A DNA stretch of 64,000 nt, from NCBI GenBank assembly GCA_965207225.1, contig CBDBLV010000005.1, positions 608,001 through 672,000 of the forward strand. The letters run 5' to 3'. This document shows positions 1,391 to 19,047 of the stretch, piece after piece. Below the pieces are notes generated by a model. The model ran no database searches, was not told the origin of the DNA, and saw only the letters and a program-made list of their open reading frames with translations. Source of the stretch: Dehalococcoidia bacterium. Its GTDB lineage: Bacteria > Chloroflexota > Dehalococcoidia > Plut-88900. A program made the position numbers and the translations under genes. Numbering within the stretch: the stretch's first letter is position 1; the number at the start of each line of letters is the position of its first letter.

Positions 1391-3061
1391 TTGGCCAGAA
1401 GAGCGCTGACACTGCTGGGTGTCCTCGCAATCGTCGGGGTGGCGGGCCTGTCGCTGTTGATTCCGAACGCCGTCAACGCGGACGAACACAGCGCCACTAG
1501 GTCCTTCGTCTCCAGTTCGGTTGCCACAGGTGCCGAGTTAGAGATAGAAATCACCGCCGAAAATTACGGGTCCTTCGCCCAGGTCGAAGAAACACTTCCG
1601 GAGGGGTTCATATTCCTCCGCTCGGACCTGGACGACAGCAGCATCGAAACTGATGGCCAGAACGTCAAGTTCACCCTGTTCGGTGAGGACCACTTCCACT
1701 ACACGGTCTCCGCATCCCAGGCCTCCGGAGACTACACCTTCTCCGGCACAGTTAAGGACGACAACAGGAACGTGCGTGACGTAAGCGGAGACACCACGGT
1801 CACCGTCAGCGGCGCCGCTCCCCCAGTCGCCGAGCGGACCCTCTCTTCCGACACCGTCCTCCCCGGTCGCCAGCTAGTCGTCTCCGTTTCGGTAGCCGAC
1901 TACGGCATCGGCGGGCGCCTCGTGGAGACCATCCCAGCCGGCTTCGACGTCGTCCCCACCGCCGACAGCTCAGTCAGCGTGTCCGGTGGCAACATATCCT
2001 TCATCCTCCTGGGTGAAGAGTCCGTCACCTACACCCTCATCGCCCCTGACGACCCCGGAGTCCACAACTTTGTTGGTACTATCACCAACTTCGACAAGAT
2101 CTCCGAAGCAGTCGGTGGCGCCGCCCAGGTGACCGTTGCCCCCAGGCCCGCCGCAACCGCCACCCGCTCCTTCGACGCCCCTCGCATTGAGGTCGGCGGC
2201 GAGATCGACGTAAAAGTCGCCCTCACCGACTACGGCGTCGGCGGCAAGCTCGTCGAAACCCTCCCCGAAGGCTTCACCTTCGTAGCCAGCGACCTCGGCG
2301 TAGGCGCCACCAGCGTCGCCGGCCAGAACGTCACCTTCTACCTCCTCGGCGAAGACTCCGTGAGCTACGTAGCCACCGCCCCCGGAGCAGAAGGTTCAGA
2401 CGCCGTCTACAGCTTCAGCGGTGTCCTCAGTGACATCGACAAGAACGATGTGGACGTAACGGGTGACGCAGATCTCCTCGTCGGTACCGTCAACCCAACC
2501 TTCTCCGCGGATGAGACCGCCGTCCGTGAGATCAACGAAAATACCCCGGCCGGCGTCCGCATCGGCGACCCGATCATGGCGTCCGCAGCAATCGGTGGCC
2601 TCACCTTCGAGATTACCAGCGCCGCCGCAGACACCTTCGACATCGAGAACGATGGCCAGCTCCGCACCAAGGGCGACCTGGACTACGAGACCCGGTCCAG
2701 CTACTCGCTCAAGGTGACCATCACCGACGAGTTCGGTGGATCAGCATCCCTCGTGGTCACCGTCCAGGTCCTCGACCGTGACGAATATGTCCCACCGACG
2801 GCCACGCCTGAGCCCACGGCTACCCCGGCACCCACGGCCACCCCAGTCCCGACGGCAACGTCGGTACCGCAGCGACCCACGGCCACCCCAGAGCCTACGG
2901 CCACCCCGGTCCCGACTGTAGAGCCCACGGCCACCCCGACCGTTGTGGAGCCAGACGAGGAAGCTGGGTTCCCGGTATGGGCCATTGTGATAATCGTAAT
3001 CGCAGCGGTCGTAGTGGTAGGCGGCGGAGGGTATGTCGTGTACCGCAGGCAGCAAGGCTAA
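1391..3061 (+). CDS. Membrane-anchored surface protein: signal peptide, 3 cohesin-like beta repeats, cadherin domain, PT linker, C-terminal TM helix
   Basis: Signal peptide MARRALTLLG...VNA; three ~105-aa repeats (A.RSF...YG...ETLPEGF...F.L.GE...Y...Y.FSG...V.G); LDYETRSSY cadherin; PTATP repeats; WAIVIIVIAAVVVV...YRRQQG. Confidence 0.8.
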   Translation: MARRALTLLGVLAIVGVAGLSLLIPNAVNADEHSATRSFVSSSVATGAELEIEITAENYGSFAQVEETLPEGFIFLRSDLDDSSIETDGQNVKFTLFGEDHFHYTVSASQASGDYTFSGTVKDDNRNVRDVSGDTTVTVSGAAPPVAERTLSSDTVLPGRQLVVSVSVADYGIGGRLVETIPAGFDVVPTADSSVSVSGGNISFILLGEESVTYTLIAPDDPGVHNFVGTITNFDKISEAVGGAAQVTVAPRPAATATRSFDAPRIEVGGEIDVKVALTDYGVGGKLVETLPEGFTFVASDLGVGATSVAGQNVTFYLLGEDSVSYVATAPGAEGSDAVYSFSGVLSDIDKNDVDVTGDADLLVGTVNPTFSADETAVREINENTPAGVRIGDPIMASAAIGGLTFEITSAAADTFDIENDGQLRTKGDLDYETRSSYSLKVTITDEFGGSASLVVTVQVLDRDEYVPPTATPEPTATPAPTATPVPTATSVPQRPTATPEPTATPVPTVEPTATPTVVEPDEEAGFPVWAIVIIVIAAVVVVGGGGYVVYRRQQG

Positions 3062-3112
3062 TCGGTCCCAATAGCGGCTGCACCAGCTCTGCAGCATAAA
3101 CTAGAGTGAATA

Positions 3113-3150
3113 CCGTCCCCGGGGAGTAATCCCCGGGGGCGGATCCTCTT
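3113..3150 (+). terminator. Stem-loop/intrinsic terminator after scaffold gene 1
   Basis: ccgtccccgggga-gtaa-tccccgggggcgg followed by a T-rich stretch; homologous hairpin at ~11047-11084. Confidence 0.6.
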
Positions 3151-3216
3151 TAGTGAGTTCTCCTCCTATTTCAGCTACAATGCCCCTGCACCACCTCACG
3201 CCTCGGGAGTACTTCA

Positions 3217-3519
3217 ATGCGCCTGACCGCCAAGGAGATGGACCGCCTGACCATCTTCACCGCCGCCCAGCTTGCCCGCAGGCGTCGGGACAAGGGCCTG
3301 AAGCTAAACTATCCCGAAGCTGTTGCCCTCATCTCCGATGAGCTCCTCGAAGACGGCCGCGAAGGCAAGTCCTACGAAGAAGTGATTGAGCGCGCAGGCC
3401 GAATCCTCACCCGAGACGATGTCCTGGACGGCGTCCCCGACCTGGTAACCCCCCTCCGCCTGGAAGTAACCTTCGACGACGGCAACAAGCTCATATACTT
3501 GGAGGATCCCATCAAGTAA
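3217..3519 (+). CDS. ureA: Urease subunit gamma
   Basis: MRLTAKEMDRL...LARRRRDKGLKLNYPEAVALI...EVTFDDGNKL, 100 aa. Confidence 0.95.
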   Translation: MRLTAKEMDRLTIFTAAQLARRRRDKGLKLNYPEAVALISDELLEDGREGKSYEEVIERAGRILTRDDVLDGVPDLVTPLRLEVTFDDGNKLIYLEDPIK

Positions 3520-3520
3520 G

Positions 3521-3904
3521 GTGAGTCACTCTATGAAGCCCGGCGAAGTTATCAGCAGTGAAGTCGCACTCCCAATAAATCAGGACAGGACAGCAGTCAC
3601 CATTTCGGTGACCAATACCTCTGACCATGCGGTTCAGGTCACTTCCCACTACCATTTCTTCGAAGCGAACAAGCGCCTCCGCTTCAACAGGACTGCAGCC
3701 TACGGGAAGAGACTCGACGTACCCTCGGGCTCCGCTGTGCGATGGCAACCTGTCGAGACCCGAGACGTTACCCTCATCGACATCGCCGGCAAACGTCGAG
3801 TCTATGGCTTTCAGGGACTGGTCAACGGCCAATTGACCGACGAACAGCGCGGCGAGGCCCTCCGTTTGGCCCAGGCCCGAGGTTTCCTTAATCAGGAAGC
3901 TTGA
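3521..3904 (+). CDS. ureB: Urease subunit beta
   Basis: MKPGE...VTNTSDHAVQVTSHYHFFEAN...AYGKRLDVPSGSAVRW...VYGFQGLVNG. Confidence 0.95.
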   Translation: MSHSMKPGEVISSEVALPINQDRTAVTISVTNTSDHAVQVTSHYHFFEANKRLRFNRTAAYGKRLDVPSGSAVRWQPVETRDVTLIDIAGKRRVYGFQGLVNGQLTDEQRGEALRLAQARGFLNQEA

Positions 3905-3906
3905 AC

Positions 3907-5583
3907 ATGACCCACGAGATGGACAGGGCCCATTACAACGCCCTTTACGGCCCCACCGTCGGGGACCGCATCCGATTAGGTGACACTGACCTCTTCCTCC
4001 TGGTAGAAGCCGACCACACCTCCTACGGAAACGAGATCACCCACGGCTGGGGGAAGAACACCCGCACCGGGATGATGCACGCTTACCGTACGCCCAGTGA
4101 CAGCGAGCTTGATGATGTCATCGTGGGCGCTGTAGTTGCCGATCCGGTTCTAGGCATATTCAAGGGTGATATCGGGATCAAGGACGGTGTGATAGCTGGC
4201 ATTGGTCGAGCTGGCAACCCTGACATAATGGACGGCGTCGACTTGGTCTTGGGCCCCAACACCAACGTCTTCCCTGCTGCCGGGCTGATCGCTACCCCCG
4301 GAGGCGTCGATAGCCACGTCCACATTTATCACAACCCAAAACTGCTCGAAACGGCCATCGGGGCGGGCGTCACTACCTTTATCGGTGCTGGACTCAACCA
4401 CAACGGTGAATTCACCATCCACAAGTACTTCGAGGCCTTCGAAGGCGTCCCCATAAACCTTGGCGTCCAGGGCCGAGGCGCCGCCAGCCACCCCGCCCCC
4501 ATCGAGCGCAATATCGAAGCCGGCGCCTGCGGCATGAAGATCCACGAAGACGAGGGTGCTTATCCCTACATCATCGACCTCTGCCTTCAGGTCGCCGAGC
4601 AATACGACGTTTCAGTCGCCCTTCATACCGACGGTCTTCAGGAGTCCATGCAGGTAAACGACACTATAGAAGCAATCGGTGGCAGGGCCCTCCACGCATA
4701 TCACGTCGAAGGCGTTGGAGGTGGCCATGCCCCTGACCTTCTCAAACTGGCCGGTGTCGAAAACATAATGACCTCATCCACCACCCCCACCGTTCCCTAT
4801 ACCGCCGGCACCTACCAAGAACACTTCCCCATGACCGCCCTTGTTCATGGCCTAACCCCTCATCTTCCCACGGATGTCGCCGCCCTTGAAGCCCGTGTCC
4901 GTCGCGAGACCATGGCCGCAGAGGACGTTCTCCACGACATTGGCGCAGTTCCAATCATCAACTCCGACTCCCAGGGAATGGGCCGTATCGGGGAAGTCGT
5001 TACTCGCACTTGGCAGCTTGCCCACAAGATGAAGAGGGAACGAGGGAGCGTTAATCCGGATCACGACAACGACCGAATCCTCCAGTATCTGGCCAAGATT
5101 ACGATCAACCCTGCCATTACCCACGGCATTTCCGAATATGTGGGGTCACTCCGTAATGGCAGGATGGCAGACATTGTCCTTTGGGACCCTCGCTTCTTTG
5201 GAGTGAAGCCCGACACCGTCTTCAAGGGCGGCTTCGTCGCCTGGGGCCCCAGTGGGGAAGGCAACGCTTCTGTAACCGGTTCCCAACCTACAGTCTATGG
5301 TCCGGCTTTTGGCGCCATGGGTCACGCTGCCGGGAAACTAAGCGCTTTCTTCGTCTCTCAGGCATCGCTTGATAAGGACTTACCTAAGCGCCTGCGTTCG
5401 CGCAGAAAGTTCCTCCCCGTCAGAAACGTACGTAGCGTCTCCAAGAGGAAAATGATCCTTAACACCCGAAACCCCATGATAGACATTGACCCCTGTACAT
5501 CCCGGGTTCTCGTTAATGGCGTCGAAGCCATTTCAGAAGCCGTCAGAGAATTTCCACTAAATCGCCAGTATGTCATTACTTGA
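3907..5583 (+). CDS. ureC: Urease subunit alpha (divergent)
   Basis: YGPTVGDRIRLGDTDL; metal-ligand motifs DSHVH, MKIHED, ALHTD, YHVEGVGGGHAPD, SDSQGMGR. Confidence 0.93.
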   Translation: MTHEMDRAHYNALYGPTVGDRIRLGDTDLFLLVEADHTSYGNEITHGWGKNTRTGMMHAYRTPSDSELDDVIVGAVVADPVLGIFKGDIGIKDGVIAGIGRAGNPDIMDGVDLVLGPNTNVFPAAGLIATPGGVDSHVHIYHNPKLLETAIGAGVTTFIGAGLNHNGEFTIHKYFEAFEGVPINLGVQGRGAASHPAPIERNIEAGACGMKIHEDEGAYPYIIDLCLQVAEQYDVSVALHTDGLQESMQVNDTIEAIGGRALHAYHVEGVGGGHAPDLLKLAGVENIMTSSTTPTVPYTAGTYQEHFPMTALVHGLTPHLPTDVAALEARVRRETMAAEDVLHDIGAVPIINSDSQGMGRIGEVVTRTWQLAHKMKRERGSVNPDHDNDRILQYLAKITINPAITHGISEYVGSLRNGRMADIVLWDPRFFGVKPDTVFKGGFVAWGPSGEGNASVTGSQPTVYGPAFGAMGHAAGKLSAFFVSQASLDKDLPKRLRSRRKFLPVRNVRSVSKRKMILNTRNPMIDIDPCTSRVLVNGVEAISEAVREFPLNRQYVIT

Positions 5584-5832
5584 CTTTGTGGCGGTTTTGG
5601 AGCAAACCTTTATTGGGTAATATGAGCCCTAACCTGACAAATTGACCGCTTTTCCTCTGTGAATTTCATAGAAAACCCTACCAATTCTCGCCGCGAAACA
5701 GTACAATCTGTAGGCTATAAGGTTCAAAGCATGTGGTATCATTCACCGAAGATTGGTCTCCTCTGTTCTGAAGCGAATGGCATAGGCCGTTCACAGGCGA
5801 ACAAGAGGCTGACCCCAGCGGAGATTGACTAA

Positions 5833-8800
5833 ATGACAAGTGCGATAAAGTCCCGGAGCTCGAAAACCCCGTCGCGCGTATTAGTGGTGGCGGCTGCATT
5901 CCTGGCAGCTGTCATGTTCATGACGCTTTTCCTGCCTTCTCTTTTGCTCGAATTCGGACACGCGCAAGGGCAGGTCGAGCCCGTGCAGGTCTCCAAGCTA
6001 TTCCTTGAGAATAGCGAGGATCCGGTCACAGAGTTCGGCGCCGTAGACCCTGAAGGCCAACCCATCAGATGGCAGCTCTCCGGCAATGACTCCGCTGACT
6101 TCTCAGTCAATGAAGGTGTCCTAACCTTTACCGTCCCACCCGATTTCGAAAACCCGGCAGACCAGAACCGGGACAACGTCTATGAAGTCACCGTGGAAGC
6201 CCGTGACCCTGGCTTTAACATCGCACCTGCCGAACTCACCATTCAAGTCCTGAACATTGACGAGGACGGCATCGTAACCCTTTCCACCGATAGGCCCCAG
6301 CAGGGCGTGCGTGTCACAGCCAGCGTCACCGACCCCGACCGCATAACCTCGCAAATTGAATGGCAATGGTCCAAGTCCCTCAACGGAGTTACGGGCTGGG
6401 CCGATATTTCCGGCGCAACCGCCGGCCACTACGTACCTACGGAATTTGATGTCGGCCATTACATCCGGGCCACTGCAACTTACAACGATGTCCAGGGCGG
6501 TGATACCTCCAAGTCTGCCCATGGCATTTCGGCCAACGCTGTTGTGGCAGAGCCCCACATCAACCGCGCACCTGAATTCCTTGACCGCTCCCCGACCAGA
6601 TCTGTCAACGAAAACGTCGCCGCTGGCACCCCGGTCGGAGACCCCGTCGCCGCAGAGGACCAGGACAATGACGACCTGACTTACGTACTCGGTGGCGCCG
6701 ACGCTTCAACTTTCTCCATTGATAGCTCCACCGGCCAGATCTCGGTCGGTGCGGGCGCCAGTATTGACTTTGAGACCAAGAGTAGCTACAGCGTAACTGT
6801 CACGGCTTCGGACCCTTCGGCCACCAGTGACGCTGTGACCGTTACCATCTCTGTCAATGATGTAAATGAACCCCCCACCGCCCCCTCGGGGGACACGGCA
6901 ATCGACTATCCCGAAAACGGAACCTCGGCAGTCCAGCGCTTCACCTCCTCCGACCCCGAGGGTGATTCCTTGAGATGGTCCCTCTCCGGTGATGACGCCT
7001 ACGATTTCTCCATCGCCGAAGGAGTCCTCAGCTTCGTCTCTTCGCCTGATTTTGAAAGTCCTGCCGACAGAGACCTTGACAATGTCTACGATGTGACCAT
7101 CAGCGCTGGCGATACCGCCGGCAAGACCACTTCCATTGATGTGACCGTAACCGTAACCAACGTGGATGAAGCAGGCACGGTTACCCTGTCTTCAGATCAG
7201 CCCGGAGAAGGCGTTAGCTTTTCGGCCCGCTTAGCCGACCCTGACCGCATTACCTCTACGATCTCCTGGCAGTGGTCCCGCTCCACGGATTCCGCAGCTG
7301 GTTGGGTTGATATCCCCAACTCCAACTCTGGAATCTACGTACCTTCTGTAGTTGATGTCGGTCACTACCTCCAGGCTACGGCCACCTACAGAGATGCCGA
7401 AAGTGCAACCGACAACAAGACCGCGAGCCGGGTTTCCGCTAATGCGGTCCTTGCCCGACCTGAAATCAACATCGCCCCCGAATTCCTTGAGGATGACCCA
7501 GCGTCAAGGAGCGTTAACGAGAACGCGGCTGCTGGCGCCGCTGTCGGTGATCCGGTCGCCGCAGAGGATGCCAACGGTGATGAGTTGACCTACACCTTGG
7601 GTGGCGATGACTTAGCCTCCTTCTCCATAGATGCTGCTACCGGTCAGATCTCCGTTGGCAACGGCACTGTACTTGACTTCGAGTCCCAGTCATCCTACTC
7701 CGTGTCCGTCACAGCTACTGACCCTGAGGGCCTGTATGACAGCATTGGCGTCTCAATATCGGTCAACGATGTTGACGAGGCCCCGTCCATCTCCGCAGAT
7801 TCAACCGAGATGGAGTACGCCGAGAACGATACTGACCCAGTCGCTACCTTCAGCGCTTCCGACCCAGAAGGTGTAACCCCCATCGGTTGGGAGCTCTCCG
7901 GTGACGACTCCGACAACTTCACAATCGCGGACGGTGTGCTCTCCTTCAGCGCCTCCCCAGACTATGAAAACCCGACTGACCAGGGTCTAGACAATGTCCA
8001 TAACCTCTCCATCGGCGCCAGGGATACCACAGCCAATATCACTTGGCTCGCAGTCACCGTGACTGTTACCAACGTTGAAGAGGCAGGCGCGGTAAGCTTG
8101 TCCACCGGTCAGCCCACCGAGGGCGTCCGGATAACCGCTACACTGAGCGATCCTGATCACATCGCCTCCAGGGTCTCTTGGCAGTGGGCCCGGTCCGCAG
8201 ATGGGTCTAGTTGGACTGACATCGAGGATGCTAACTCCGCCATCTACACACCTGGCCGGGACGACGGCAATCACTACCTCCGGGCTACCGCTAGTTACAA
8301 TGACCGTGAAGATGCTGTAACCACTAAGACTGCCAGCGCCCAAACCGATGAAGCGGTTATCCCTGTAGAGCGTCCCAACCAGCCGCCGACTTTCACAGAC
8401 TCTGACCCAACGGGTAGGTCAGTCAACGAAAACGCCGCAACGGCCGCCCCTGTTGGAGCCCCGGTCGATGCCGAGGACCCGGATGACGAGACCCTCGTCT
8501 ACACCCTAAGTGGTGATGATGCAGACGCCTTCGACATCAACTCGGCTACCGGTCAGATCTCTGTCGCCGAAGGCACTGAGCTCGACTTCGAGACCGACAA
8601 CAGCTACAGCGTCATCGTCACAGTGGTTGACCCCGCTGGCGCCAGTGACACCATCGGTGTCCTGATCTCCGTTACCGACGTTGATGAGACCCCCACAATC
8701 TTCGAAAAAGAGCTCATCATCCTCGAAAGCAGGCCTTCCGACTACACGGAGAACAGCATCCACAAGGTCGCTACTTACGCAGTCGATGGGACAAAGACCG

Positions 8801-9168
8801 AGGGTGTCGTTTGGACCCTTACGGGTGTGGACGCCGGCCTCTTCAGCATCACCCAGCTTAATGGGTTGGTAGAGCTCACCTTCAATTCCTCGCCGGACTA
8901 CGAAAACCCGATGGACCAGGGTAGGGACAACGAATACAACATCACCATCGTTGCTACCAACAACGAGGGTACCGAGTCTACTCTATCCGTAATCGTCACA
9001 GTCTCTGATGACCCAGACGACAATGCAGGCTCCGCAGCAGTCTTCGACCTCAACGGTGACGGAGTAATCGACCGGGCCGAAGCGCTCGCAGCCGTGAGAG
9101 ACTACTTCAACGACGACATCACCCTAGACCAGGTCCTGGCGGTTATCGTCCGGTACTTCGCCAGCTAA
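5833..9168 (+). CDS. Large secreted cadherin/Ig-repeat protein with C-terminal EF-hand/dockerin-like tail
   Basis: N-terminal hydrophobic signal; three ~300-aa super-repeats (cadherin PDFENP.D..DNVY + Ig-like WQWS.S...GHY.RATATY + cadherin LDFE); tail FDLNGDGVIDRAEALAAVRDYFNDDITLDQVLAVIVRYFAS. Confidence 0.88.
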   Translation: MTSAIKSRSSKTPSRVLVVAAAFLAAVMFMTLFLPSLLLEFGHAQGQVEPVQVSKLFLENSEDPVTEFGAVDPEGQPIRWQLSGNDSADFSVNEGVLTFTVPPDFENPADQNRDNVYEVTVEARDPGFNIAPAELTIQVLNIDEDGIVTLSTDRPQQGVRVTASVTDPDRITSQIEWQWSKSLNGVTGWADISGATAGHYVPTEFDVGHYIRATATYNDVQGGDTSKSAHGISANAVVAEPHINRAPEFLDRSPTRSVNENVAAGTPVGDPVAAEDQDNDDLTYVLGGADASTFSIDSSTGQISVGAGASIDFETKSSYSVTVTASDPSATSDAVTVTISVNDVNEPPTAPSGDTAIDYPENGTSAVQRFTSSDPEGDSLRWSLSGDDAYDFSIAEGVLSFVSSPDFESPADRDLDNVYDVTISAGDTAGKTTSIDVTVTVTNVDEAGTVTLSSDQPGEGVSFSARLADPDRITSTISWQWSRSTDSAAGWVDIPNSNSGIYVPSVVDVGHYLQATATYRDAESATDNKTASRVSANAVLARPEINIAPEFLEDDPASRSVNENAAAGAAVGDPVAAEDANGDELTYTLGGDDLASFSIDAATGQISVGNGTVLDFESQSSYSVSVTATDPEGLYDSIGVSISVNDVDEAPSISADSTEMEYAENDTDPVATFSASDPEGVTPIGWELSGDDSDNFTIADGVLSFSASPDYENPTDQGLDNVHNLSIGARDTTANITWLAVTVTVTNVEEAGAVSLSTGQPTEGVRITATLSDPDHIASRVSWQWARSADGSSWTDIEDANSAIYTPGRDDGNHYLRATASYNDREDAVTTKTASAQTDEAVIPVERPNQPPTFTDSDPTGRSVNENAATAAPVGAPVDAEDPDDETLVYTLSGDDADAFDINSATGQISVAEGTELDFETDNSYSVIVTVVDPAGASDTIGVLISVTDVDETPTIFEKELIILESRPSDYTENSIHKVATYAVDGTKTEGVVWTLTGVDAGLFSITQLNGLVELTFNSSPDYENPMDQGRDNEYNITIVATNNEGTESTLSVIVTVSDDPDDNAGSAAVFDLNGDGVIDRAEALAAVRDYFNDDITLDQVLAVIVRYFAS

Positions 9169-9199
9169 ATGGTAGACTGGGCAAGCAGCTAGAATAGCC

Positions 9200-9240
9200 C
9201 ACCGCCTCCAGGGTGCATCCCTGGGGGCGGTGATGCTTTT
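9200..9240 (+). terminator. Stem-loop between adhesin and scaffold genes
   Basis: caccgcctccaggg-tgcat-ccctgggggcggtg followed by atgctttt. Confidence 0.55.
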
Positions 9241-9346
9241 GGAGCCTTGGACTGGATTAAACCCCCCAGCCCGAGAGAGGCCCTTGGCTGACCAATCCCA
9301 GCACTACAAAAGGGGCGCGCTCCAACCCCTTAAAGAAAGAAGGAAC

Positions 9347-10996
9347 TTGGTCAAGAAAGCGCTGATGCTGCTGGGAGTCCTCGCAATTGTCGGGGTCGCT
9401 GGCCTATCGCTGTTGCTGCCGGATGCCGTGAATGCAAGCGAGCACAGCGCGACCAGGTCCTTCTCCACCAATCCCGTAATCACCGGCGCCGAGCTGGAGG
9501 TCGAGATATCGGTCTCCGGCCTCGGCTCCTTCGGCCAGGTCCGGGAAACCCTACCGGAAGGCTTCTCCTTCGGCCGCTCCGATGAAGCCTCCACCACCGA
9601 CGGACAGAACGTCACCTTCACTCTCCTCGGCGGCGACAAGTCCTTCAGCTACTCCGTCACCGCCCCCTCGACGGCCGGGTCATACCAGTTCTCCGGCACC
9701 GTCAGCGACTCCAACAGGGACGCCCGGGACACCGGCGGCGACTCCTCCATAGAAGTGATAGACCCGCCCCTCGGGGCCCAGAGGTCCATAAGCCGTTCGT
9801 CCGTAACCACCGGAGAGCAGATAACAGTAAGCATAGACGCCTCGGGCTTCGGGATCGCGGCATCCGTGGAAGAGAGCCTTCCCGCTGGATTCTCCTACAT
9901 GGCCAGCAGCCTCTCCGCCGCCGCCGTTAACGTGAGCGACGACAGTATCAAGTTCACCCTCCTCGACGAGGACAGCTTCAGCTACACCCTTGTCGCCGGA
10001 GACCCCGGTGACTACACCATCTCCGGCACAATCACCGGCTTCGACAGGGCCTCCGAAGCCATCACCGGCGACGACAGCTTGATGGTAGTCGCATCCGTAG
10101 ACGCCGCCGCTGCCCGGTCCTTCGGCCCCGCCTTCGCAGACCCCGAGGGTGAAATCGCAGTGAGCATCGCGGCCTCGGGCTACGGGGCCGCCGCCCAGAT
10201 CGTGGAAATCATCCCTGATGGCTTCACCTACGTTGGCACGGACCTTCCCGGTGGCGCAATAGACACCTCCGGACAGTCCGTCACCTTCGTCCTGCTCGGC
10301 GAGTCGAGCTTCAGCTACACCGTATCGGCCCCCGCCGAAATGGGCGTCTACGCCTTCAGCGGTACCCTGACTGACATCGACCAGGCCGAGTCGGCAGTCG
10401 GTGGCGCAGCGGACCTCCACGTCAGCAACCCCGGCATCGTAATCGACGACAGCGGCGTCCGTGAAATCAACGAAAACACCCCGGCCGGCGTCCGCATCGG
10501 CGACCCGATCATGGCGTCCGCAGCAATCGGTGGCCTCACCTTCGAGATTACCAGCGCCGCCGCAGACACCTTCGACATCGAGAACGATGGCCAGCTCCGC
10601 ACCAAGGGCGACCTGGACTACGAGACCCGGTCCAGCTACTCGCTCAAGGTGACCATCACCGACGAGTTCGGTGGATCAGCATCCCTCGTGGTCACCGTCC
10701 AGGTCCTCGACCGTGACGAATACGTTCCACCGACGGCCACGCCTGAGCCCACGGCTACCCCGGCACCCACGGCCACCCCAGTCCCGACGGCAACGTCGGT
10801 ACCGCAGCGACCCACGGCCACCCCAGAGCCTACGGCCACCCCGGTCCCGACTGTAGAGCCCACGGCCACCCCGACCGTTGTGGAGCCAGACGAGGAAGCT
10901 GGGTTCCCGGTATGGGCCATTGTGATAATCGTAATTGCAGCGGTCGTAGTGGTAGGCGGCGGAGGGTACTTCGTCTACCGCAGACAGCAAGGCTAA
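9347..10996 (+). CDS. Second membrane-anchored 3x cohesin-like/cadherin/PT/TM scaffold protein
   Basis: Paralog of 1391-3061; TTG start at 9347 after an AG-rich RBS aligns with the paralog's signal peptide; C-terminal ~180 aa essentially identical. Confidence 0.8.
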   Translation: MVKKALMLLGVLAIVGVAGLSLLLPDAVNASEHSATRSFSTNPVITGAELEVEISVSGLGSFGQVRETLPEGFSFGRSDEASTTDGQNVTFTLLGGDKSFSYSVTAPSTAGSYQFSGTVSDSNRDARDTGGDSSIEVIDPPLGAQRSISRSSVTTGEQITVSIDASGFGIAASVEESLPAGFSYMASSLSAAAVNVSDDSIKFTLLDEDSFSYTLVAGDPGDYTISGTITGFDRASEAITGDDSLMVVASVDAAAARSFGPAFADPEGEIAVSIAASGYGAAAQIVEIIPDGFTYVGTDLPGGAIDTSGQSVTFVLLGESSFSYTVSAPAEMGVYAFSGTLTDIDQAESAVGGAADLHVSNPGIVIDDSGVREINENTPAGVRIGDPIMASAAIGGLTFEITSAAADTFDIENDGQLRTKGDLDYETRSSYSLKVTITDEFGGSASLVVTVQVLDRDEYVPPTATPEPTATPAPTATPVPTATSVPQRPTATPEPTATPVPTVEPTATPTVVEPDEEAGFPVWAIVIIVIAAVVVVGGGGYFVYRRQQG

Positions 10997-11156
10997 TCGG
11001 TTAGACCAGCGGTTGCCCTGGCCAGATAGCATAAAATAGAGTGAAATCCGCCCCCGGGGAGCAATCCCTGGGGGCGGATTCTTTCGTGGTGCGTGAGTTC
11101 TCCTCCTATTTCAGCTACAATGCCCCTGCACCACCTCACGCCTCGGGAGTACTTCA

Positions 11157-11459
11157 ATGCGCCTGACCGCCAAGGAGATGGACCGCCTGACCATCTTCAC
11201 CGCCGCCCAGCTTGCCCGCAGGCGTCGGGACAAGGGCCTGAAGCTAAACTATCCCGAGGCTGTTGCCCTCATCTCCGATGAGCTCCTCGAAGACGGCCGC
11301 GAAGGCAAGTCCTACGAAGAAGTGATTGAGCGCGCAGGCCGAATCCTCACCCGAGACGATGTCCTGGACGGCGTCCCCGACCTGGTAACCCCCCTCCGCC
11401 TGGAAGTAACCTTCGACGACGGCAACAAGCTCATATACTTGGAGGATCCCATCAAGTAA
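11157..11459 (+). CDS. ureA: Urease subunit gamma (copy 2)
   Basis: Protein identical to 3217-3519. Confidence 0.95.
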   Translation: MRLTAKEMDRLTIFTAAQLARRRRDKGLKLNYPEAVALISDELLEDGREGKSYEEVIERAGRILTRDDVLDGVPDLVTPLRLEVTFDDGNKLIYLEDPIK

Positions 11460-11460
11460 G

Positions 11461-11844
11461 GTGAGTCACTCTATGAAGCCCGGCGAAGTTATCAGCAGTG
11501 AAGCCGCACTCCCAATAAATCAGGACAGGACAGCAGTCACCATTTCGGTGACCAATACCTCTGACCATGCGGTTCAGGTCACTTCCCACTACCATTTCTT
11601 CGAAGCGAATAAGCGCCTCCGCTTCAACAGGACTGCAGCCTACGGGAAGAGACTCGACGTACCCTCGGGCTCCGCTGTGCGATGGCAACCTGGCGAGACC
11701 CGAGACGTTACCCTCATCGACATCGCTGGCAAACGTCGAGTCTATGGCTTTCAGGGACTGGTCAACGGCCAATTGACCGACGAACAGCGCGGCGAGGCCT
11801 TCCGTTTGGCCCAGGTCCGAGGTTTCCTTAATCAGGAAGCTTGA
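11461..11844 (+). CDS. ureB: Urease subunit beta (copy 2)
   Basis: Four aa differences from copy 1. Confidence 0.95.
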   Translation: MSHSMKPGEVISSEAALPINQDRTAVTISVTNTSDHAVQVTSHYHFFEANKRLRFNRTAAYGKRLDVPSGSAVRWQPGETRDVTLIDIAGKRRVYGFQGLVNGQLTDEQRGEAFRLAQVRGFLNQEA

Positions 11845-11846
11845 AC

Positions 11847-13523
11847 ATGACCCACGAGATGGACAGGGCCCATTACAACGCCCTTTACGGCCCCACCGTC
11901 GGGGACCGCATCCGATTAGGTGACACTGACCTCTTCCTCCTGGTAGAAGCCGACCACACCTCCTACGGAAACGAGATCACCCACGGCTGGGGGAAGAACA
12001 CCCGCACCGGGATGATGCACGCTTACCGTACGCCCAGTGACAGCGAGCTTGATGATGTCATCGTGGGCGCTGTAGTTGCCGATCCGGTTCTAGGCATATT
12101 CAAGGGTGATATCGGGATCAAGGACGGTGTGATAGCTGGCATTGGTCGAGCTGGCAACCCTGACATAATGGACGGCGTCGACTTGGTCTTGGGCCCCAAC
12201 ACCAACGTCTTCCCTGCTGCCGGGCTGATCGCTACCCCCGGAGGCGTCGATAGCCACGTCCACATTTATCACAACCCAAAACTGCTCGAAACGGCCATCG
12301 GGGCGGGCGTCACTACCTTTATCGGTGCTGGACTCAACCACAACGGTGAATTCACCATCCACAAGTACTTCGAGGCCTTCGAAGGCGTCCCCATAAACCT
12401 TGGCGTCCAGGGCCGAGGCGCCGCCAGCCACCCCGCCCCCATCGAGCGCAATATCGAAGCCGGCGCCTGCGGCATGAAGATCCACGAAGACGAGGGTGCT
12501 TATCCCTACATCATCGACCTCTGCCTTCAGGTCGCCGAGCAATACGACGTTTCAGTCGCCCTTCATACCGACGGCCTTCAGGAGTCCATGCAGGTGAACG
12601 ACACCATAGAGGCAATCGGTGGCAGGGCCCTCCACGCATATCACGTCGAAGGCGTTGGAGGTGGCCATGCCCCTGACCTTCTCAAACTGGCCGGTGTCGA
12701 AAACATAATGACCTCATCCACCACCCCCACCGTTCCCTATACCGCCGGCACCTACCAAGAACACTTCCCCATGACCGCCCTTGTTCATGGCCTAACTCCT
12801 CATCTTCCCACGGATGTCGCTGCCCTTGAAGCCCGTGTCCGTCGCGAGACCATGGCCGCAGAGGACGTTCTCCACGACATTGGCGCAGTTCCAATCATCA
12901 ACTCCGACTCCCAGGGAATGGGCCGTATCGGGGAAGTCGTTACTCGCACTTGGCAGCTTGCCCACAAGATGAAGAGGGAACGAGGGAGCGTTAATCCGGA
13001 TCACGACAACGACCGAATCCTCCAGTATCTGGCCAAGATTACGATCAACCCTGCCATTACCCACGGCATTTCCGAATATGTGGGGTCACTCCGTAATGGC
13101 AGGATGGCAGACATTGTCCTTTGGGACCCTCGCTTCTTTGGAGTGAAGCCCGACACCGTCTTCAAGGGCGGCTTCGTTGCCTGGGGTGCGAATGGAGAAG
13201 GCAATGCCTCCATATCCAGGTGTGAGCCAACTATCTACGGACCTGCCTTCGGGGCTATGGGGCGCGCCGCGGGTAGACTCAGCGCCTTTTTCGTATCCCA
13301 GGCATCTCTTGACAAAGGTCTGGCTGAGAACCTGCGCTCCCACCGAAAGCTCCTGCCCGTCAGAAACATACGCAGCGCATCCAAGAGGAAAATGGTCCTC
13401 AACACCCTTAATCCGACCATCGACGTTGATCCCCGGACCTCTCGCGTTCTCGTGGACGGTCGGGAGGCTGTCTCAGAGGCAGTAAAGCAGGTACCGCTCA
13501 ACCGACTCTATGTGATTACATGA
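11847..13523 (+). CDS. ureC: Urease subunit alpha (copy 2, different C-terminus)
   Basis: Same as copy 1 up to GGFVAWG, then a diverged last ~110 aa. Confidence 0.93.
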   Translation: MTHEMDRAHYNALYGPTVGDRIRLGDTDLFLLVEADHTSYGNEITHGWGKNTRTGMMHAYRTPSDSELDDVIVGAVVADPVLGIFKGDIGIKDGVIAGIGRAGNPDIMDGVDLVLGPNTNVFPAAGLIATPGGVDSHVHIYHNPKLLETAIGAGVTTFIGAGLNHNGEFTIHKYFEAFEGVPINLGVQGRGAASHPAPIERNIEAGACGMKIHEDEGAYPYIIDLCLQVAEQYDVSVALHTDGLQESMQVNDTIEAIGGRALHAYHVEGVGGGHAPDLLKLAGVENIMTSSTTPTVPYTAGTYQEHFPMTALVHGLTPHLPTDVAALEARVRRETMAAEDVLHDIGAVPIINSDSQGMGRIGEVVTRTWQLAHKMKRERGSVNPDHDNDRILQYLAKITINPAITHGISEYVGSLRNGRMADIVLWDPRFFGVKPDTVFKGGFVAWGANGEGNASISRCEPTIYGPAFGAMGRAAGRLSAFFVSQASLDKGLAENLRSHRKLLPVRNIRSASKRKMVLNTLNPTIDVDPRTSRVLVDGREAVSEAVKQVPLNRLYVIT

Positions 13524-13659
13524 TGAGGCTCTATGCCCAGGTGCTCCTAACTGAGTGTCAACCCTGGGTCGTTTGAAGTGGTCGGGCAATATATCTTCCC
13601 GCTCTGCTGCCAGGAATGCAAAGGCCTCGCCAAAGCTGCTAATGTGGATCACAAAGGAA

Positions 13660-13734
13660 TGGAGCCAGCGAAGGGAATCGAACCCTTGGCCTGCGGTTTA
13701 CGAAACCGCTGCTCTACCGCTGAGCTACGCTGGC
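13660..13734 (-). tRNA. tRNA-Thr(CGT)
   Basis: Reverse complement gccagcgtagctcagcggtagagcagcggtttcgtaaaccgcaggccaagggttcgattcccttcgctggctcca; anticodon CGT, encoded CCA. Confidence 0.96.
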
Positions 13735-13817
13735 CTCAATGCCGGGCCCTCACGCCCGACATACCATATTATCAATAGGAATCCGCCCTTTGTAAATCTA
13801 CCCCTTCGCCCCGACTC

Positions 13818-13845
13818 TGGACATTCCCAGCACCCCGGCTATAAT
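13818..13845 (+). promoter_or_regulatory. Putative sigma70 promoter
   Basis: TGGACA-N16-TATAAT upstream of the 13889 ORF. Confidence 0.5.
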
Positions 13846-13888
13846 TGGAGCAGCGGCTTGGAGCCGCCACCAAACCACTGGAGACAGC

Positions 13889-14080
13889 ATGGACCGCATA
13901 CCTTCAAGTATTCTTCTCCCTCTCATGGCTGGCATCTTCGTCCTCGTTGTTGGTGGAGGGCTGGGGGTCATATTCACCCTCGCCGGAATCATGGGCACCA
14001 TCATCATCGGATTGGCCATAGTTATCCTCTCACCTATCATTGCCTTCTGGTTGGCTAAGGGCCAGCGCACTAGCTCCTGA
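13889..14080 (+). CDS. Small 2-TM membrane protein
   Basis: 63 aa, two hydrophobic helices, GGAG RBS, hairpin terminator at ~14110-14140. Confidence 0.65.
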   Translation: MDRIPSSILLPLMAGIFVLVVGGGLGVIFTLAGIMGTIIIGLAIVILSPIIAFWLAKGQRTSS

Positions 14081-14223
14081 CCTCACTCCAACAGAGCCAG
14101 CCCATCAAGAAAGAGAGCGTATTGCGCTCTCTTTTCTCTTTCCTTCAGCCGGTGCCTCCTGTTGCGCAACAGCCGACCGGAAATGTAGTATGCCCCCGAC
14201 CCCCAACCTTCCAGGAGGTGACC

Positions 14224-15435
14224 ATGTCCCGGCTTGTCATCACCAACTGCCACCTTATCGACGCCGTTTCAGATCACGCGCAGCCCGATGCCAGCATCGC
14301 CATAGAAGACGGCCTCATCACCCACATCGAGACAAACGGCAACAGCATAGATGCCGACGGCACCCGAGTTATTGATGCCGGGGGCGGCTGGCTCCTCCCG
14401 GGACTCTGGGACGTCCATGTTCACCTCATGTTCCCCTATCCCCCGCCTAAGACCATCCCCGAGCGCGTCGTCAGCTACGGTAAAAATGCCATGGAAGGCC
14501 TCACGGGGAGTGGAGTCACCGGCATCCGCAGCGGCGGTATTGAGCACTGGATAGACGTCGCCTGGCGGGACGCCTTCACCTCAGGCCAGTACCTGGGCCC
14601 CCGAGTCTTCGCTTCCGGCTACTTTCTCACCACCACTGGCGGACACGGCACCCGATGGCCCTTCTCTCAGCAGTGTGACGGCCCTGAAGACTTCGTTCTC
14701 GCCGTCCGAAAGCAGATCGAGAATAACGTTGACCACATCAAGCTGAACCTATCCGGCGGCATCATGGGCCCCGACTGGGACCGCCACTGGCACAGCTTCT
14801 TCCTCCCAGACGAGATGGAAGCCACCTACCAGGTCTGCCACCAGCGAGACATGAAGGTTATGTCCCACGCCGCCAACCCCGACGCCGTCAAGGGCGCCGT
14901 TCGCAACGACACCTGGACCGTAGAGCACGGCTACATAATGGACGATGAGTGCCTCGATATGATGAAGGAAAAGGGCACCATCTACGTCCCCACCCTCGGC
15001 ATCAGCCACCTCACCCCCAGGCAGGTTACCAATGAATGGGAGCAAGAGTACCTGGAGGTAAAGCAGATCTCCGCCGAAATGCTCGCCCGAGCAGACGCCG
15101 CCGTCGAAGAGCACGCCATGTGGTTCAAGAAGGCCCTCGACTCCGGTGTCAAGATGGCCCTCGGCTCAGACCTCGGCCCCGTCAAGGATGCCGTTCACCT
15201 GGAGATGGGCCTCTGGGTCCGGGACGGAGCCACGCCCATGCAGGCCATCAAGGCAGCTACCGCCATGTCCGCCCTGACTTGCGGCGTCGATGACAAGCTC
15301 GGCACCGTAGAGGTAGGAAAGATTGCTGACCTCATAGTCGTCGGCGCCGACCCCCTTGAGAACATCGATAACATGCGCCAACTCCGGATGGTCTTCAAGG
15401 ACGGTCGCCTCGTCGTCGATAAGACCACTGATTGA
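14224..15435 (+). CDS. Amidohydrolase (imidazolonepropionase/Xaa-Pro dipeptidase-like)
   Basis: LLPGLWDVHVH, DHIKL, SHA, VEHG, GSD, GTVEVGKIADL; GGAGGTG RBS before ATG 14224. Confidence 0.9.
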   Translation: MSRLVITNCHLIDAVSDHAQPDASIAIEDGLITHIETNGNSIDADGTRVIDAGGGWLLPGLWDVHVHLMFPYPPPKTIPERVVSYGKNAMEGLTGSGVTGIRSGGIEHWIDVAWRDAFTSGQYLGPRVFASGYFLTTTGGHGTRWPFSQQCDGPEDFVLAVRKQIENNVDHIKLNLSGGIMGPDWDRHWHSFFLPDEMEATYQVCHQRDMKVMSHAANPDAVKGAVRNDTWTVEHGYIMDDECLDMMKEKGTIYVPTLGISHLTPRQVTNEWEQEYLEVKQISAEMLARADAAVEEHAMWFKKALDSGVKMALGSDLGPVKDAVHLEMGLWVRDGATPMQAIKAATAMSALTCGVDDKLGTVEVGKIADLIVVGADPLENIDNMRQLRMVFKDGRLVVDKTTD

Positions 15436-15461
15436 CCTCCCCACTGCAAGGAGCTTCCCCC

Positions 15462-16598
15462 ATGTCTGAAATATACACGCCCTCCGTATACTCCAACCTG
15501 GGCGTCAAACGAGTCATCTGTGCCCGCAGCAGCTCCACTGTCCTCGGCGGCTCCATCCTCAGCCCCACCGTCCAGAACGCTATGGAGAAGGCCAACCGTA
15601 TCTACGTGGAAATGCCCGAACTTATCGAAAAGGCGGGCGAGGCCATCGCAGACCTCATTGGCGCCGAGGCCGCCCACCCCACCCCCGGTTGCTTTGCTGC
15701 CGTCTCTCTCGGTGTGTCCGGCGTTATGACTGGCGGCGACCCCGACCTCGTCTCCCGCCTCCCGGACACTTCTGGCCTAAAGAACGAGTTCCTCATCCAG
15801 AAATGCGCCCGATACTCCTACGACCGTAGCGTCACTGTTTCCGGCGCCCGCATGATCGAGGTAGGCGATGATGACCAAACAACGCCCAACCAGCTAGTCC
15901 AGGCCATAGGCCCGAGCGCCGGCGGCATCGTCTACGCAGCCCACCAGGAATGCGAGCCCGGGATCCTCCCCCTCTCCGAGGTAGTATCCATAGCTAAGGA
16001 AGCCGGTATCGCCGTAATCGTCGATGCCGCCTACCAGGTCTATCCCCTCGAGCGCATCACAGAGCTTGTCAGCAGCGGCGCCGACATCGTCTGCTTCAGT
16101 GCCAAGTACATGGGCGGCCCCAACTCCACGGGTTTCCTATGTGGCAATAAGGAAGCTGTGCGTGCCGCAGCCCTCAACGGCTTCATGGCCTTCGAGACGG
16201 AGAAGAACCGAAACCTGGGCCGGGGCTACAAGATTGACCGACAGGAAGTTGTCGCAGTCGTCGCCGTTCTGCGGGAGTGGCTGAAAATGGACCACGAGGC
16301 CCGGCTCGCCGACCAGGACCGTCGATTCCAGGTCGTCGCGGAGTCCCTCGCCGGCCTTCCCCACCTCGACGTTACCCAGGGTTGGTACGACCGCTACTGC
16401 TCCATGGAAATGAAAATCGCCATCGACGAACAGGCCCTCGGCCGCACCGCCGCCTCCGTCGAACAGGCCCTCAGGGAAGGCGACCCCTGCATCTGGCTCT
16501 GGCTCGAAGGATCATCCCTCAAACTCGGCGTCGACACCCTCCTGGAAGGTGAAGAACACATCCTCGCCCGCCGCCTCCGCGAAGAGCTAACTACCTGA
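15462..16598 (+). CDS. SelA/DgaE-like PLP-dependent enzyme
   Basis: LGVKRVICA..S.TVLGGS, VIVDAA, GADIVCFSAKYMGGP, GRGYKIDRQE. Confidence 0.8.
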   Translation: MSEIYTPSVYSNLGVKRVICARSSSTVLGGSILSPTVQNAMEKANRIYVEMPELIEKAGEAIADLIGAEAAHPTPGCFAAVSLGVSGVMTGGDPDLVSRLPDTSGLKNEFLIQKCARYSYDRSVTVSGARMIEVGDDDQTTPNQLVQAIGPSAGGIVYAAHQECEPGILPLSEVVSIAKEAGIAVIVDAAYQVYPLERITELVSSGADIVCFSAKYMGGPNSTGFLCGNKEAVRAAALNGFMAFETEKNRNLGRGYKIDRQEVVAVVAVLREWLKMDHEARLADQDRRFQVVAESLAGLPHLDVTQGWYDRYCSMEMKIAIDEQALGRTAASVEQALREGDPCIWLWLEGSSLKLGVDTLLEGEEHILARRLREELTT

Positions 16599-16739: not shown

Positions 16740-17846
16740 CTACCCCCCGTTCAACGAAAACCCATAAATCCGCGCCGCATTCTCCCCCACTATCTTCCGC
16801 TTGTCGCTCTCCGACAGGTCACCGAACGTCCTCTCGATTACTTCCTGCGAATTCGGGAACGTCCCCTCGTCGTGTGGATAATCGCTTCCCCACAGCAGAA
16901 CGTCGGCCCCTGTCAAAGAGATGTTTAGCAATGCAGGAAGATCATCTCCAAAGGTTAGCCCGCCCTGCCTCTTGAAATACTCGCTGGGTTGCATCTGGAG
17001 CTTGGGACGGATCCACATGTGTTTTTTCTCGGCCTGCTCGTCCAGTGCGTAAAGGAGCCACGCTAGCCACCCTGCCCCACACTCCGCCACCACGAACCGG
17101 ATCCCGGGGTGCCTCTCCAGCACCCCCGAGCAGATCAGGTCCGTTATCGGCTCCTGCACCTGCGACATCCCGCACACCAGCCACTTGATGAATCCGCCCT
17201 GCTCCTCCTCCCCTATCTCATCCGGGAACGGATCATAGTCCACCGCCCGGGCATGTAGGCTCAGCGCCATTCCCGAATCCTCGATAGCCTGCCACAGCGG
17301 CTCGTACTCCGGCTGGTTGTAGGGCAGCCTGCTCACCAGGGCGGGTATGGACGCCACCTTGAACCCCAGGGCGGCCAGCCTCTTGATCTCCTTAATCCCC
17401 CTGTCGATGTCGATCACCGGGACCACCCCGACCGGTGCAAACCTGTCTCCCTGGGGCCGGAAATGCTCGATCACCCAGTTGTTGTATGGCTGTGCCACCG
17501 CCATCTGGTAGTCGGGGTCCGGCGAGCTGTAGATCCAAAGGGTGTAGTCGGGATAGATCACCTCGGCGCTCACCCCGTCCCGCTCGATCTCTGAGATCCG
17601 CCGCTCCAAGTTCCGACCACCCCATTCCTCGTGCCGGAACTCCTTCTCACGGTCCTCTTCCGTCAGACGGGCCTCCGCCAGGTCCAGCCTCCGTCGTTTT
17701 CGCCCCTCCACCACCCGGTACGTGGCCCCGTTTTCCTGGATGATCTTTGGAGTCCTGTGCCGGAACTCCGGCGCCACCAGCTCCGTGTACAGCTCGGGAG
17801 GCTCCGCTACGTGCGAGTCCGCCGATATGATCGTGTAGCCTGCCAT
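16740..17846 (-). CDS. Amidohydrolase_2 family protein
   Basis: ISADSHVAEP...SLHA...AECGAGW...WGSDYPHDEGTFP...GENAARIYG. Confidence 0.9.
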   Translation of the reverse strand: MAGYTIISADSHVAEPPELYTELVAPEFRHRTPKIIQENGATYRVVEGRKRRRLDLAEARLTEEDREKEFRHEEWGGRNLERRISEIERDGVSAEVIYPDYTLWIYSSPDPDYQMAVAQPYNNWVIEHFRPQGDRFAPVGVVPVIDIDRGIKEIKRLAALGFKVASIPALVSRLPYNQPEYEPLWQAIEDSGMALSLHARAVDYDPFPDEIGEEEQGGFIKWLVCGMSQVQEPITDLICSGVLERHPGIRFVVAECGAGWLAWLLYALDEQAEKKHMWIRPKLQMQPSEYFKRQGGLTFGDDLPALLNISLTGADVLLWGSDYPHDEGTFPNSQEVIERTFGDLSESDKRKIVGENAARIYGFSLNGG

Positions 17847-17898
17847 GTTTCGCCTCCCTGCCCCTTATTTGACCTGCGGCCCCGATGCCCGGGCCCCG

Positions 17899-19032: not shown

Positions 19033-19047
19033 CTTCGTCTTTACCCC

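Follow-up and report, generated by a model that had tools for sequence, protein, structure and literature searches.

Urease is the classic example of a nickel enzyme, and the way in which UreDEFG mature it serves as the model for metallocentre assembly. What, then, is made by urease genes in which the metal ligands are intact, the substrate pocket is altered and no maturation genes are linked? This question is raised by a stretch of 64,000 nucleotides from the genome of a sponge-associated Dehalococcoidia bacterium (Chloroflexota; assembly GCA_965207225.1, contig CBDBLV010000005.1, positions 608,001 to 672,000 of the forward strand), referred to here as the window. Positions 3217-13523 of the window, which an earlier note on this DNA had taken as one atypical urease feature, comprise two near-identical ureA-ureB-ureC-like operons (3217-5583 and 11157-13523, both on the plus strand) that belong to a direct duplication of ~3 kb and have two genes between them (Table 1).

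Each operon is predicted to encode the gamma, beta and alpha subunits of a urease-architecture enzyme from a distinct clade with a shortened active-site loop. The anatomy of the locus, the clade, the lack of accessory genes and the purifying selection are, taken alone, highly secure. The fuller reading, in which this short-loop enzyme has a metal centre assembled without chaperones and uses urea as its substrate, is held at about even strength; self-activation, the metal and the substrate are the parts of it that we infer.

The UreC-like Protein Keeps the Urease Catalytic Residues in an Altered Pocket

The top NCBIfam match of the ureA-like product was to the gamma portion of NF009671, a bifunctional gamma/beta model, and residues 4-124 of the ureB-like product aligned with positions 109-230 of the same model and with positions 105-225 of NF010592, a Helicobacter-type fused subunit. 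The operon junctions are tight, with a gap of 1 nt between ureA and ureB and an overlap of 4 nt between ureB and ureC. The UreC-like protein matched PF00449 (140.3 bits) and PF01979 (160.8 bits), and its two copies scored 731 and 738 bits against the subfamily model NF009686, for which the cut-off is 354. Matches were obtained to 34 PDB sequences, and every full-length match was a urease. An AlphaFold2 model built from a 112-sequence alignment had a mean predicted local distance difference test (pLDDT) score of 90.4 and superposed on solved ureases with a template-modelling (TM) score of 0.96 and a root mean square deviation of 1.5-1.9 Å; an earlier model from a 23-sequence alignment (pLDDT 54.4) was unusable. 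The three-subunit gene set and the fold are thus shared with the canonical Ni-ureases of Klebsiella aerogenes, Sporosarcina pasteurii and Helicobacter pylori (2kau, 4ubp and 1e9z), to which the protein is 44-47% identical.

Motifs were compared in a HMMER alignment to H. pylori UreB (1e9z_B, 532.9 bits) and in a 165-sequence MAFFT alignment. The metal ligands, listed in the earlier note as HxH, K, H, H and D, are all kept in both window copies as H139, H141, K213, H242, H268 and D356, which align with residues that we take to be K. aerogenes His134, His136, Lys217, His246, His272 and Asp360, the carbamylated-type lysine among them. Further catalytic residues, H215, D217, H316 and R332, are likewise kept in both copies and presumably correspond to K. 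aerogenes His219, Asp221, His320 and Arg336.

The departures from canonical sequence that had been read from the DNA alone were borne out in both alignments. In the flap, canonical mlmvchhl reads mtalvhgl (MVCHHL to ALVHGL); the catalytic flap His is retained, and the Cys that precedes it (now Val) and the His that follows it (now Gly) are lost. The motif ihedwg reads ihedeg (HEDWG to HEDEG), htdtlne reads htdglqe (HTDT to HTDG, within DGLQES), sdsqamg reads sdsqgmg (SQAMG to SQGMG), and ggGk..RdGm reads gwGkntRtGm (GGGK to GWGK, within GWGKNTRTGM). The active-site loop GGGTGPA..TTCTPG is replaced by GAG----------LNHNGEF, a 10-residue deletion that yields the shorter GAGLNHNGEF. By contrast, loop and flap are both intact in the 22 canonical sequences of that alignment, apart from one with Asn at the second His. 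The changes are genuine and not due to chance: the same states recur across a clade of 131 sequences, and the ratio of non-synonymous to synonymous substitution rates (dN/dS) against eight orthologues was 0.03-0.16.

A Distinct Short-loop Clade

The 120 best database relatives of the window protein (54-90% identity, mostly 555-562 amino acids) have the same motif states. By source names, the clade spans Dehalococcoidia, Chloroflexota, Planctomycetes/Planctomycetota, Candidatus Methylomirabilis, Tectomicrobia/Entotheonellaceae and Bathyarchaeia, with soil and sponge metagenomes among the sources. The earlier note had pointed to UreC phylogeny as a check on its reading, and in both trees constructed here the enzyme falls outside the canonical clade. 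In the 165-sequence tree, the 131 short-loop sequences (clade A) were monophyletic and apart from the 22 canonical ones. Residues H139, H141, K213, H215, H242, H268, H316 and D356 were present in all 131 members of clade A, and D217 and R332 in 130 of the 131. Two smaller groups were also resolved. Clade B consists of nine sequences, found in Chloroflexota, with a 4-residue loop deletion, GFGK, the flap VHR and GGGH-PN. Clade C consists of three alphaproteobacterial sequences (L017, L018 and L022) with a 3-residue loop deletion and SDSQGMG and otherwise canonical motifs, including HEDWG and MVCHHL; UreD genes occur in all three of these loci and UreG genes in L017 and L022.

A wider tree (FastTree supports, midpoint root) was built from 163 sequences that took in metagenome loci and 50%-identity representatives. 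For this tree P0001-P0120 were thinned to every fourth, and sequences with fewer than 500 query columns and 22 without the full catalytic string were left out. The short-loop group, here clade A plus a subclade D, had a support of 0.963. The Dehalococcoidia subclade that contains the window protein, A1 (28 tips, support 1.0), is the first branch within this group and is followed by the soil-dominated A2, with D nested as the sister of A2 (support 1.0). Subclade D is marked by an 11-residue deletion, WGYAK, a retained HEDWG, HTDGLNE and the flap VHG. The short-loop group has clade B as its sister (support 0.993), with the canonical sequences plus clade C on the other side.

Short-loop and canonical sequences are separated by 26 alignment columns. 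At residue 50, Trp, Tyr or Phe was found in 115/115 short-loop sequences and Phe in 11 of 15 clade-B-type sequences, and Gly was found in 32/32 long-loop sequences. Because residue 50 covaries with loop length, this pattern suggests that the aromatic side chain may pack into the space of the lost loop. The window protein itself has the ~10-residue deletion, the aromatic residue 50, HTDG, SDSQGMG and a flap of the form [V/I/C]-H-x, and it falls within the monophyletic group. The short-loop clade is a well defined, widespread and uncharacterised branch of the urease family.

Some variants of the short-loop protein were observed alongside. Ten Chloroflexota genomes (L133-L142; families f53 and f67) carry a D-like short-loop UreC, nine with KIHED[YN]G and the flap N-H-G or V-H-G and one (G216) with KVHEDWG. 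A fused gamma/beta gene lies upstream in three of these ten fetched loci, genes for a major facilitator superfamily transporter and a proline-racemase-family protein flank both loci whose neighbours were scanned, and neither UreG nor UrtA was found in the ten genomes. In G349, ureC is split across two frames. An orphan UreC paralogue (L145, G410:C1:2215604-2229277) is 62% identical and P0048-like, has Tyr at the Asp221 equivalent and carries SDSQGFG; a flap motif could not be recognised in it, and neither ureA nor ureB lies next to its gene. It is probably degenerate or repurposed.

Accessory and Nickel Genes

The earlier note had seen no gene for UreD, UreE, UreF, UreG or a nickel transporter in the window, and none was detected among the 51 open reading frames (ORFs) scanned with Pfam, a few short ORFs lying outside the scan. 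The note had also held that ureDFG encoded elsewhere would speak against its reading. The source genome (4.03 Mb in 5 contigs, 92.3% complete, 8.3% contamination) was searched as a whole, and profile searches found no UreF, UreD, UreG or UreE_C in it, nor any NicO, HupE/UreJ or CbiM/NikM. UrtA and urea carboxylase were not found above cut-offs. The UreG model TIGR00101, which also catches HypB-type GTPases in control genomes, gave nothing in the source genome at E <= 0.001. In eight relatives of the same family that carry the gene, seven of them assembled as a single contig, UreG and UreF were both found in 0/8; UreD and UreE were searched for in the source genome only. The same searches recovered UreG and UreF adjoining ureC in two canonical Chloroflexota controls (G233 and G075).

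At the level of the phylum, an even set of 401 Chloroflexota genomes was used (the unpublished G038 is counted in each tally). A UreC match was obtained in 66 genomes and a UreG match in 46. UreC was found without UreG in 21 genomes; two of these matches are fragments, and not one of the remaining 19 is canonical (2 belong to clade A, 7 to clade B, and 10 are D-like). Conversely, all 19 typed genomes with a single UreC copy plus UreG were canonical, with 24 untyped, and G176 and G267 each have a B-type copy plus a second ureC beside ureG. A short-loop and a canonical UreC were found together in none of the 12 A- or D-bearing genomes of the sample, against ~1.3 expected, a count too small to be meaningful. 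Among fetched loci, UreD and UreG genes were present in 0/13 for A1, 0/34 for A2 and 0/40 for D, and in the canonical and clade C loci (n = 6) UreD was present in five and UreG in four. Because many fetched contigs are short, the genome-level absence carries more weight than these locus counts.

Duplication and Expression of the Operon

Besides ureABC, the duplicated segment covers the intergenic region and the portion of the upstream surface-protein gene that encodes its C terminus. Its two copies are ~100% identical from 3153 to ~5200 and then only 70-79% identical in the final 300 nt of ureC. Over codons 1-430 of ureC the copies differ by six synonymous and no non-synonymous changes; over codons 431-560 the synonymous divergence (dS) is ~2 and dN/dS is 0.065. 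The tail of copy 1 is distant from every sampled relative (dS >1.8 to all), and the tail of copy 2 matches that of the relative L006. We read the two copies as probable old paralogues, or one of them as derived from a diverged relative, with the 5' two kilobases recently homogenised by gene conversion. Purifying selection acts on both ureC tails.

Misassembly does not account for the duplication. In the public sequencing run that best holds this DNA, the unitig over the identical block (3153-5237, no differences) had a word depth of 19.7, compared with 9.8 for the unique flank (5208-6400), and one contig of the same run leaves the unique flank and 4055 letters further reaches the start of the next repeat copy. 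The two window copies are the only full urease-alpha genes in the whole genome. Close relatives have a single ureABC copy, G410 with the divergent orphan paralogue in addition. The arrangement in L006 is that of copy 2, and its single UreC is 99.3% identical to the copy 2 protein. In L007 and L009, ureABC is followed by a cadherin gene, as in copy 1; the homologous region of L010 consists of two separate ORFs.

A terminator-like hairpin precedes ureA (Table 1), which suggests that ureABC may form a transcription unit of its own. No sigma-70-like promoter site was found in a scan that covered the sigma-70 type only. A sponge metatranscriptome run (X22, a contig set of 46 million letters) gave four contigs, which all map to the surface-protein genes on either side of ureABC (2731-2886 and 5750-6400) and leave ureABC itself uncovered, a result that is uninformative either way.

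Proposed Activity and Substrate

Because the full urease catalytic set is kept (metal ligands, the His/Asp pair that polarises the substrate, the general-acid His of the flap and the flap Arg), the enzyme would be active as a binuclear-metal amidohydrolase that releases ammonia by cleavage of a carbamoyl-nitrogen bond. As the lineage lacks UreD/E/F/G and any recognised Ni importer, the metal centre would be assembled without the Ni-chaperone machinery. Spontaneous carbamylation and metal loading may be possible, as in other carbamyl-lysine amidohydrolases, and a metal other than Ni may be used. The substrate would most likely be urea made within the cell from guanidino compounds by arginase-family ureohydrolases; with urea made in the cytoplasm, no urea transporter would be needed.

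The case for urea comes from these ureohydrolases. The source genome contains 15 arginase-family genes (PF00491; 19-82% pairwise identity), five of them in tandem outside the window (C5:1630284-1635816; L146:6240-11913), and no other urea-degrading enzyme was detected in it. Such genes number 10-16 per genome across its family, compared with 1-3 in 11 other Chloroflexota, and this expansion points to a specialised catabolism of urea-releasing guanidino compounds. In two clade A contigs (L064 and L065), 18 nt separate ureC from a downstream arginase-family gene, and in G171 (L143, G171:C1:522000-536000) two arginase genes flank an accessory-free clade B operon.

Several observations weigh against urea as the substrate and against the proposed reading as a whole. 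The urea pocket departs from the canonical form: its loop has lost ten residues, and Cys319 is replaced by Val, His321 by Gly, Trp222 by Glu and Ala363 by Gly. The deleted stretch is also, we presume, the one that carries the Ala whose carbonyl binds urea. Against the equivalog model TIGR01792 (cut-off 680), copy 1 fell below the threshold at 672.1 bits and copy 2 only just exceeded it (Table 1). Three genomes of the same family (G403, G409 and G411) have 10-15 arginase genes and no UreC-like gene that could be found, so the coupling of arginase and UreC is not obligatory. A literature search, with most subscription journals outside it, found no description of the short-loop clade or of its activity, metal or substrate. 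The remaining points of this kind come from gene neighbourhoods and bear on the alternative that survives best.

That alternative is a ureido-compound (N-substituted urea) or small-amide amidohydrolase on a urease scaffold, with a pocket re-shaped for, e.g., an N-carbamoyl amine or amino acid and with urea as at best a side substrate; it is possible, if rather doubtful. The loop deletion and flap changes argue for it in being clade-wide and in covarying with the aromatic residue 50. In subclade D an agmatine-deiminase-like gene (PF04371) is present in 15 of 40 loci of this soil subclade, all from metagenomes (L087, L091, L092, L095, L103, L111, L112, L114, L117-L119, L123, L127, L130 and L132), and in five D loci it lies between ureB and ureC. 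A deiminase of this type converts a guanidino to a ureido group, and its product is an N-substituted urea. The gene scored 332 bits, below the AguA equivalog cut-off of 382, and the guanidino substrate may thus not be agmatine. The D operon suggests a putative two-step route from a guanidino compound to a ureido compound and on to an amine. Some soil A2 loci adjoin a gene for a D-hydantoinase/dihydropyrimidinase (TIGR02033, 573 bits), and some A2 loci adjoin genes for an M20 hydantoinase/carbamoylase-family amidase (TIGR01879, 360 bits) and amidases. The urea-transporter component UrtA was found in none of 26 genomes with a non-canonical UreC and in 5 of 14 with a canonical one, the genomes being related and the counts not independent.

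On the other side, the side-chain contacts to urea, which we take to be His219, Asp221, His320, Arg336 and Met364, are all kept, and no PAD_porph gene was found in the source genome. The arginase-family genes that adjoin the operons in L064, L065 and G171, and the arginase expansion, indicate urea; moreover, a deiminase acting on free guanidine would itself give urea, so the linkage in subclade D is ambiguous. A single conserved partner pathway for clade A was considered and rejected, the operon neighbours differing by lineage: cadherin surface proteins, an amidohydrolase and a pyridoxal phosphate (PLP) enzyme in the genus of the window; two-component and GMC/DAO oxidoreductase genes in L014-L016; formamidase-like and alpha/beta hydrolase genes in L012; and amidase, M20 and binding-protein genes in soil A2 contigs. 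In high-GC contigs the neighbouring ORFs were picked by a GC3 criterion, and one neighbour cluster (cluster 3, "antisense ureAB?") was discarded as an artefact of antisense frames in such contigs. The substrate evidence pulls two ways, towards urea, which we place first, and towards an N-substituted urea, which we place second. The earlier proposal of a urease-fold enzyme with another substrate or metal is partly supported: the non-canonical clade and the clade-wide pocket changes stand, and another substrate or metal is a possibility.

An ordinary Ni-urease whose accessory proteins were missed, through incomplete assembly or divergence beyond recognition, is improbable. The completeness and contamination of the source genome leave some room for it, SBP_bac_5 (NikA/Opp-type) binding-protein genes lie beside some A2 operons, and Bacillus subtilis, which has the three structural genes ureABC and is not known to encode ureDEFG, makes an active canonical-type Ni-urease, albeit of low activity. 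However, UreG and UreF were not found in the seven single-contig relatives, although both were recovered by the same searches in the controls and in canonical Chloroflexota; the UreG model reaches as far as HypB-type GTPases in control genomes and still detected nothing here; and the protein lies outside the canonical clade, with clade B plus the short-loop group separated from canonical plus C at a support of 0.99. Finally, a catalytically dead protein, or one with a structural or regulatory role in which the urease fold is merely kept, is barely credible: degenerate relatives such as the G410 orphan exist, and of 185 aligned sequences spanning 500 or more query columns, 22 are short of one or more of nine catalytic residues, but the window copies keep all ten catalytic positions, ureC is still linked to ureA and ureB through translationally coupled junctions, and purifying selection is strong.

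Comparison with Known Systems

With respect to the canonical Ni-ureases, the window enzyme thus combines common metal ligands and catalytic residues with a separate clade, an altered loop and flap, and a lineage in which the accessory genes were not found. The iron-urease UreA2B2 of Helicobacter mustelae works, as far as is known, without linked accessory genes. The earlier note had drawn a parallel with this enzyme (3qga, titled in the PDB as an iron-containing urease), and the likeness in the lack of linked accessory genes stands; it does not extend to sequence, since H. mustelae UreB2 (3qga_C, 514.5 bits) is no specific relative and scored below the Ni-ureases of H. pylori (1e9z_B, 532.9 bits), jack bean and K. 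aerogenes.

Dihydropyrimidinases, allantoinases and dihydroorotases load Zn, Co or Mn together with CO2 and are not known to need chaperones for this. These carbamyl-lysine amidohydrolases (dihydropyrimidinase/hydantoinase, allantoinase and dihydroorotase) belong to the same superfamily, share the ligand pattern and are the next-best structural matches of the model (TM 0.43-0.51). They differ in being single-subunit enzymes of 14-18% identity that lack the gamma and beta subunits as well as the N-terminal domain of urease.

In the portions of the sources available, Streptomyces genomes are described as having a second cluster, ure(AB)C (SCO5525-5526), with fused gamma/beta subunits and no adjacent accessory genes (PMC2492869, PMC3293853), in addition to a complete ureABCFGD cluster (PMC3293853). 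The window UreA and UreB likewise score best against the fused gamma/beta model NF009671, and D-like Chloroflexota operons with a fused ureAB occur; unlike Streptomyces, the window lineage has no accessory-bearing urease cluster that could be found. The UreC groups described in the available part of a study on Nitrospirales have accessory genes (PMC12342949), and in that of PMC13625781 urease appears solely as an assay reagent.

Neighbouring Genes

Four large genes for cadherin/BatD-like repeat surface proteins (2-1291, 1391-3061, 5833-9168 and 9230-10996) surround the operons. Two of the four proteins have Pro/Thr-rich linkers and a C-terminal membrane anchor, and the last 550 nt of their genes fall within the duplication. 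Downstream of copy 2, an ORF at 13555-14058 (167 amino acids) seemed to be conserved in relatives; it is most likely no gene, since a tRNA-Thr on the opposite strand overlaps it. The protein cluster of the amidohydrolase that follows was found in 6 of 13 A1 loci and 6 of 40 D loci, and the adjacent PLP enzyme in 6 of 13 A1 loci. Further along are four tandem Amidohydro_2 paralogues on the minus strand (16740-21294), with 5' ends that share 65-75% identity, and a pair of DDE transposase genes (30352-33199).

Table 1. Features of the window around the duplicated urease-like operons
Feature	Position	Strand	Evidence or remark
Repeat surface protein: cadherin domain, Pro/Thr linker, C-terminal membrane anchor	1391..3061	+	upstream of copy 1; syntenic in L006-L011 and L013
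Duplicated segment, copy 1	2518..5513		blastn, 95.9% identity over 3007 nt
Terminator-like G+C-rich hairpin (13 pairs) with T-rich tail	3113..3142	+	consensus scan, 2 sites against 2.4 expected; between surface-protein gene and ureA
ureA-like (urease gamma), copy 1, 100 aa	3217..3519	+	PF00547, 121.9 bits, full length
ureB-like (urease beta), copy 1, 127 aa, C-terminal extension	3521..3904	+	PF00699, 126.2 bits
ureC-like (urease alpha), copy 1, 560 aa, short-loop clade A1	3901..5583	+	PF00449 and PF01979
Cadherin-repeat protein, 1111 aa, between the operons	5833..9168	+	PF00028, 4 stretches
BatD/cadherin surface protein, upstream of copy 2	9230..10996	+	Pfam
Duplicated segment, copy 2	10453..13453		blastn partner of 2518..5513
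ureA-like, copy 2, protein identical to copy 1	11157..11459	+	translation; identical DNA block
ureB-like, copy 2, 4 amino-acid differences from copy 1	11461..11844	+	translation
ureC-like, copy 2, 560 aa	11841..13523	+	TIGR01792, 682.2 bits
tRNA-Thr (CGT), just downstream of copy 2	13660..13734	-	overlaps ORF 13555-14058
Amidohydrolase, 437 aa, distantly like Caulobacter Xaa-Pro dipeptidase model	14122..15435	+	PF01979; NF051886, 213 bits (cut-off 500)
PLP enzyme, DgaE/SelA-related family	15432..16598	+	TIGR01437, 160 bits (cut-off 385)

Implications

A large natural clade that keeps the catalytic residues without chaperones or a canonical pocket would let the need for accessory proteins be tested directly, and it would open an equally direct test of which metals the scaffold can use in an aerobe and of the substrate range of the fold. 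More broadly, the short-loop branch, perhaps together with clade B, may be a widespread second kind of urease-fold enzyme that is chaperone-free, through another metal or through self-loading, and at least part of which would hydrolyse N-substituted ureas produced by guanidino deiminases in place of urea; this proposal is a tentative one, held at less than even confidence.

The gene ureC is in use as a marker for ureolysis, and short-loop genes are annotated "urease subunit alpha" in the source databases. If the metal or the substrate is another, a sizeable share of metagenomic ureC from soil, sediment and sponge would not report Ni-dependent ureolysis, and conclusions drawn about the nitrogen cycle in soils and in sponge symbionts would have to be corrected. 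In the organism itself, 10-16 ureohydrolase genes go together with a urease that has no accessory genes, a pairing that suggests a specialised way of harvesting nitrogen from guanidino compounds.

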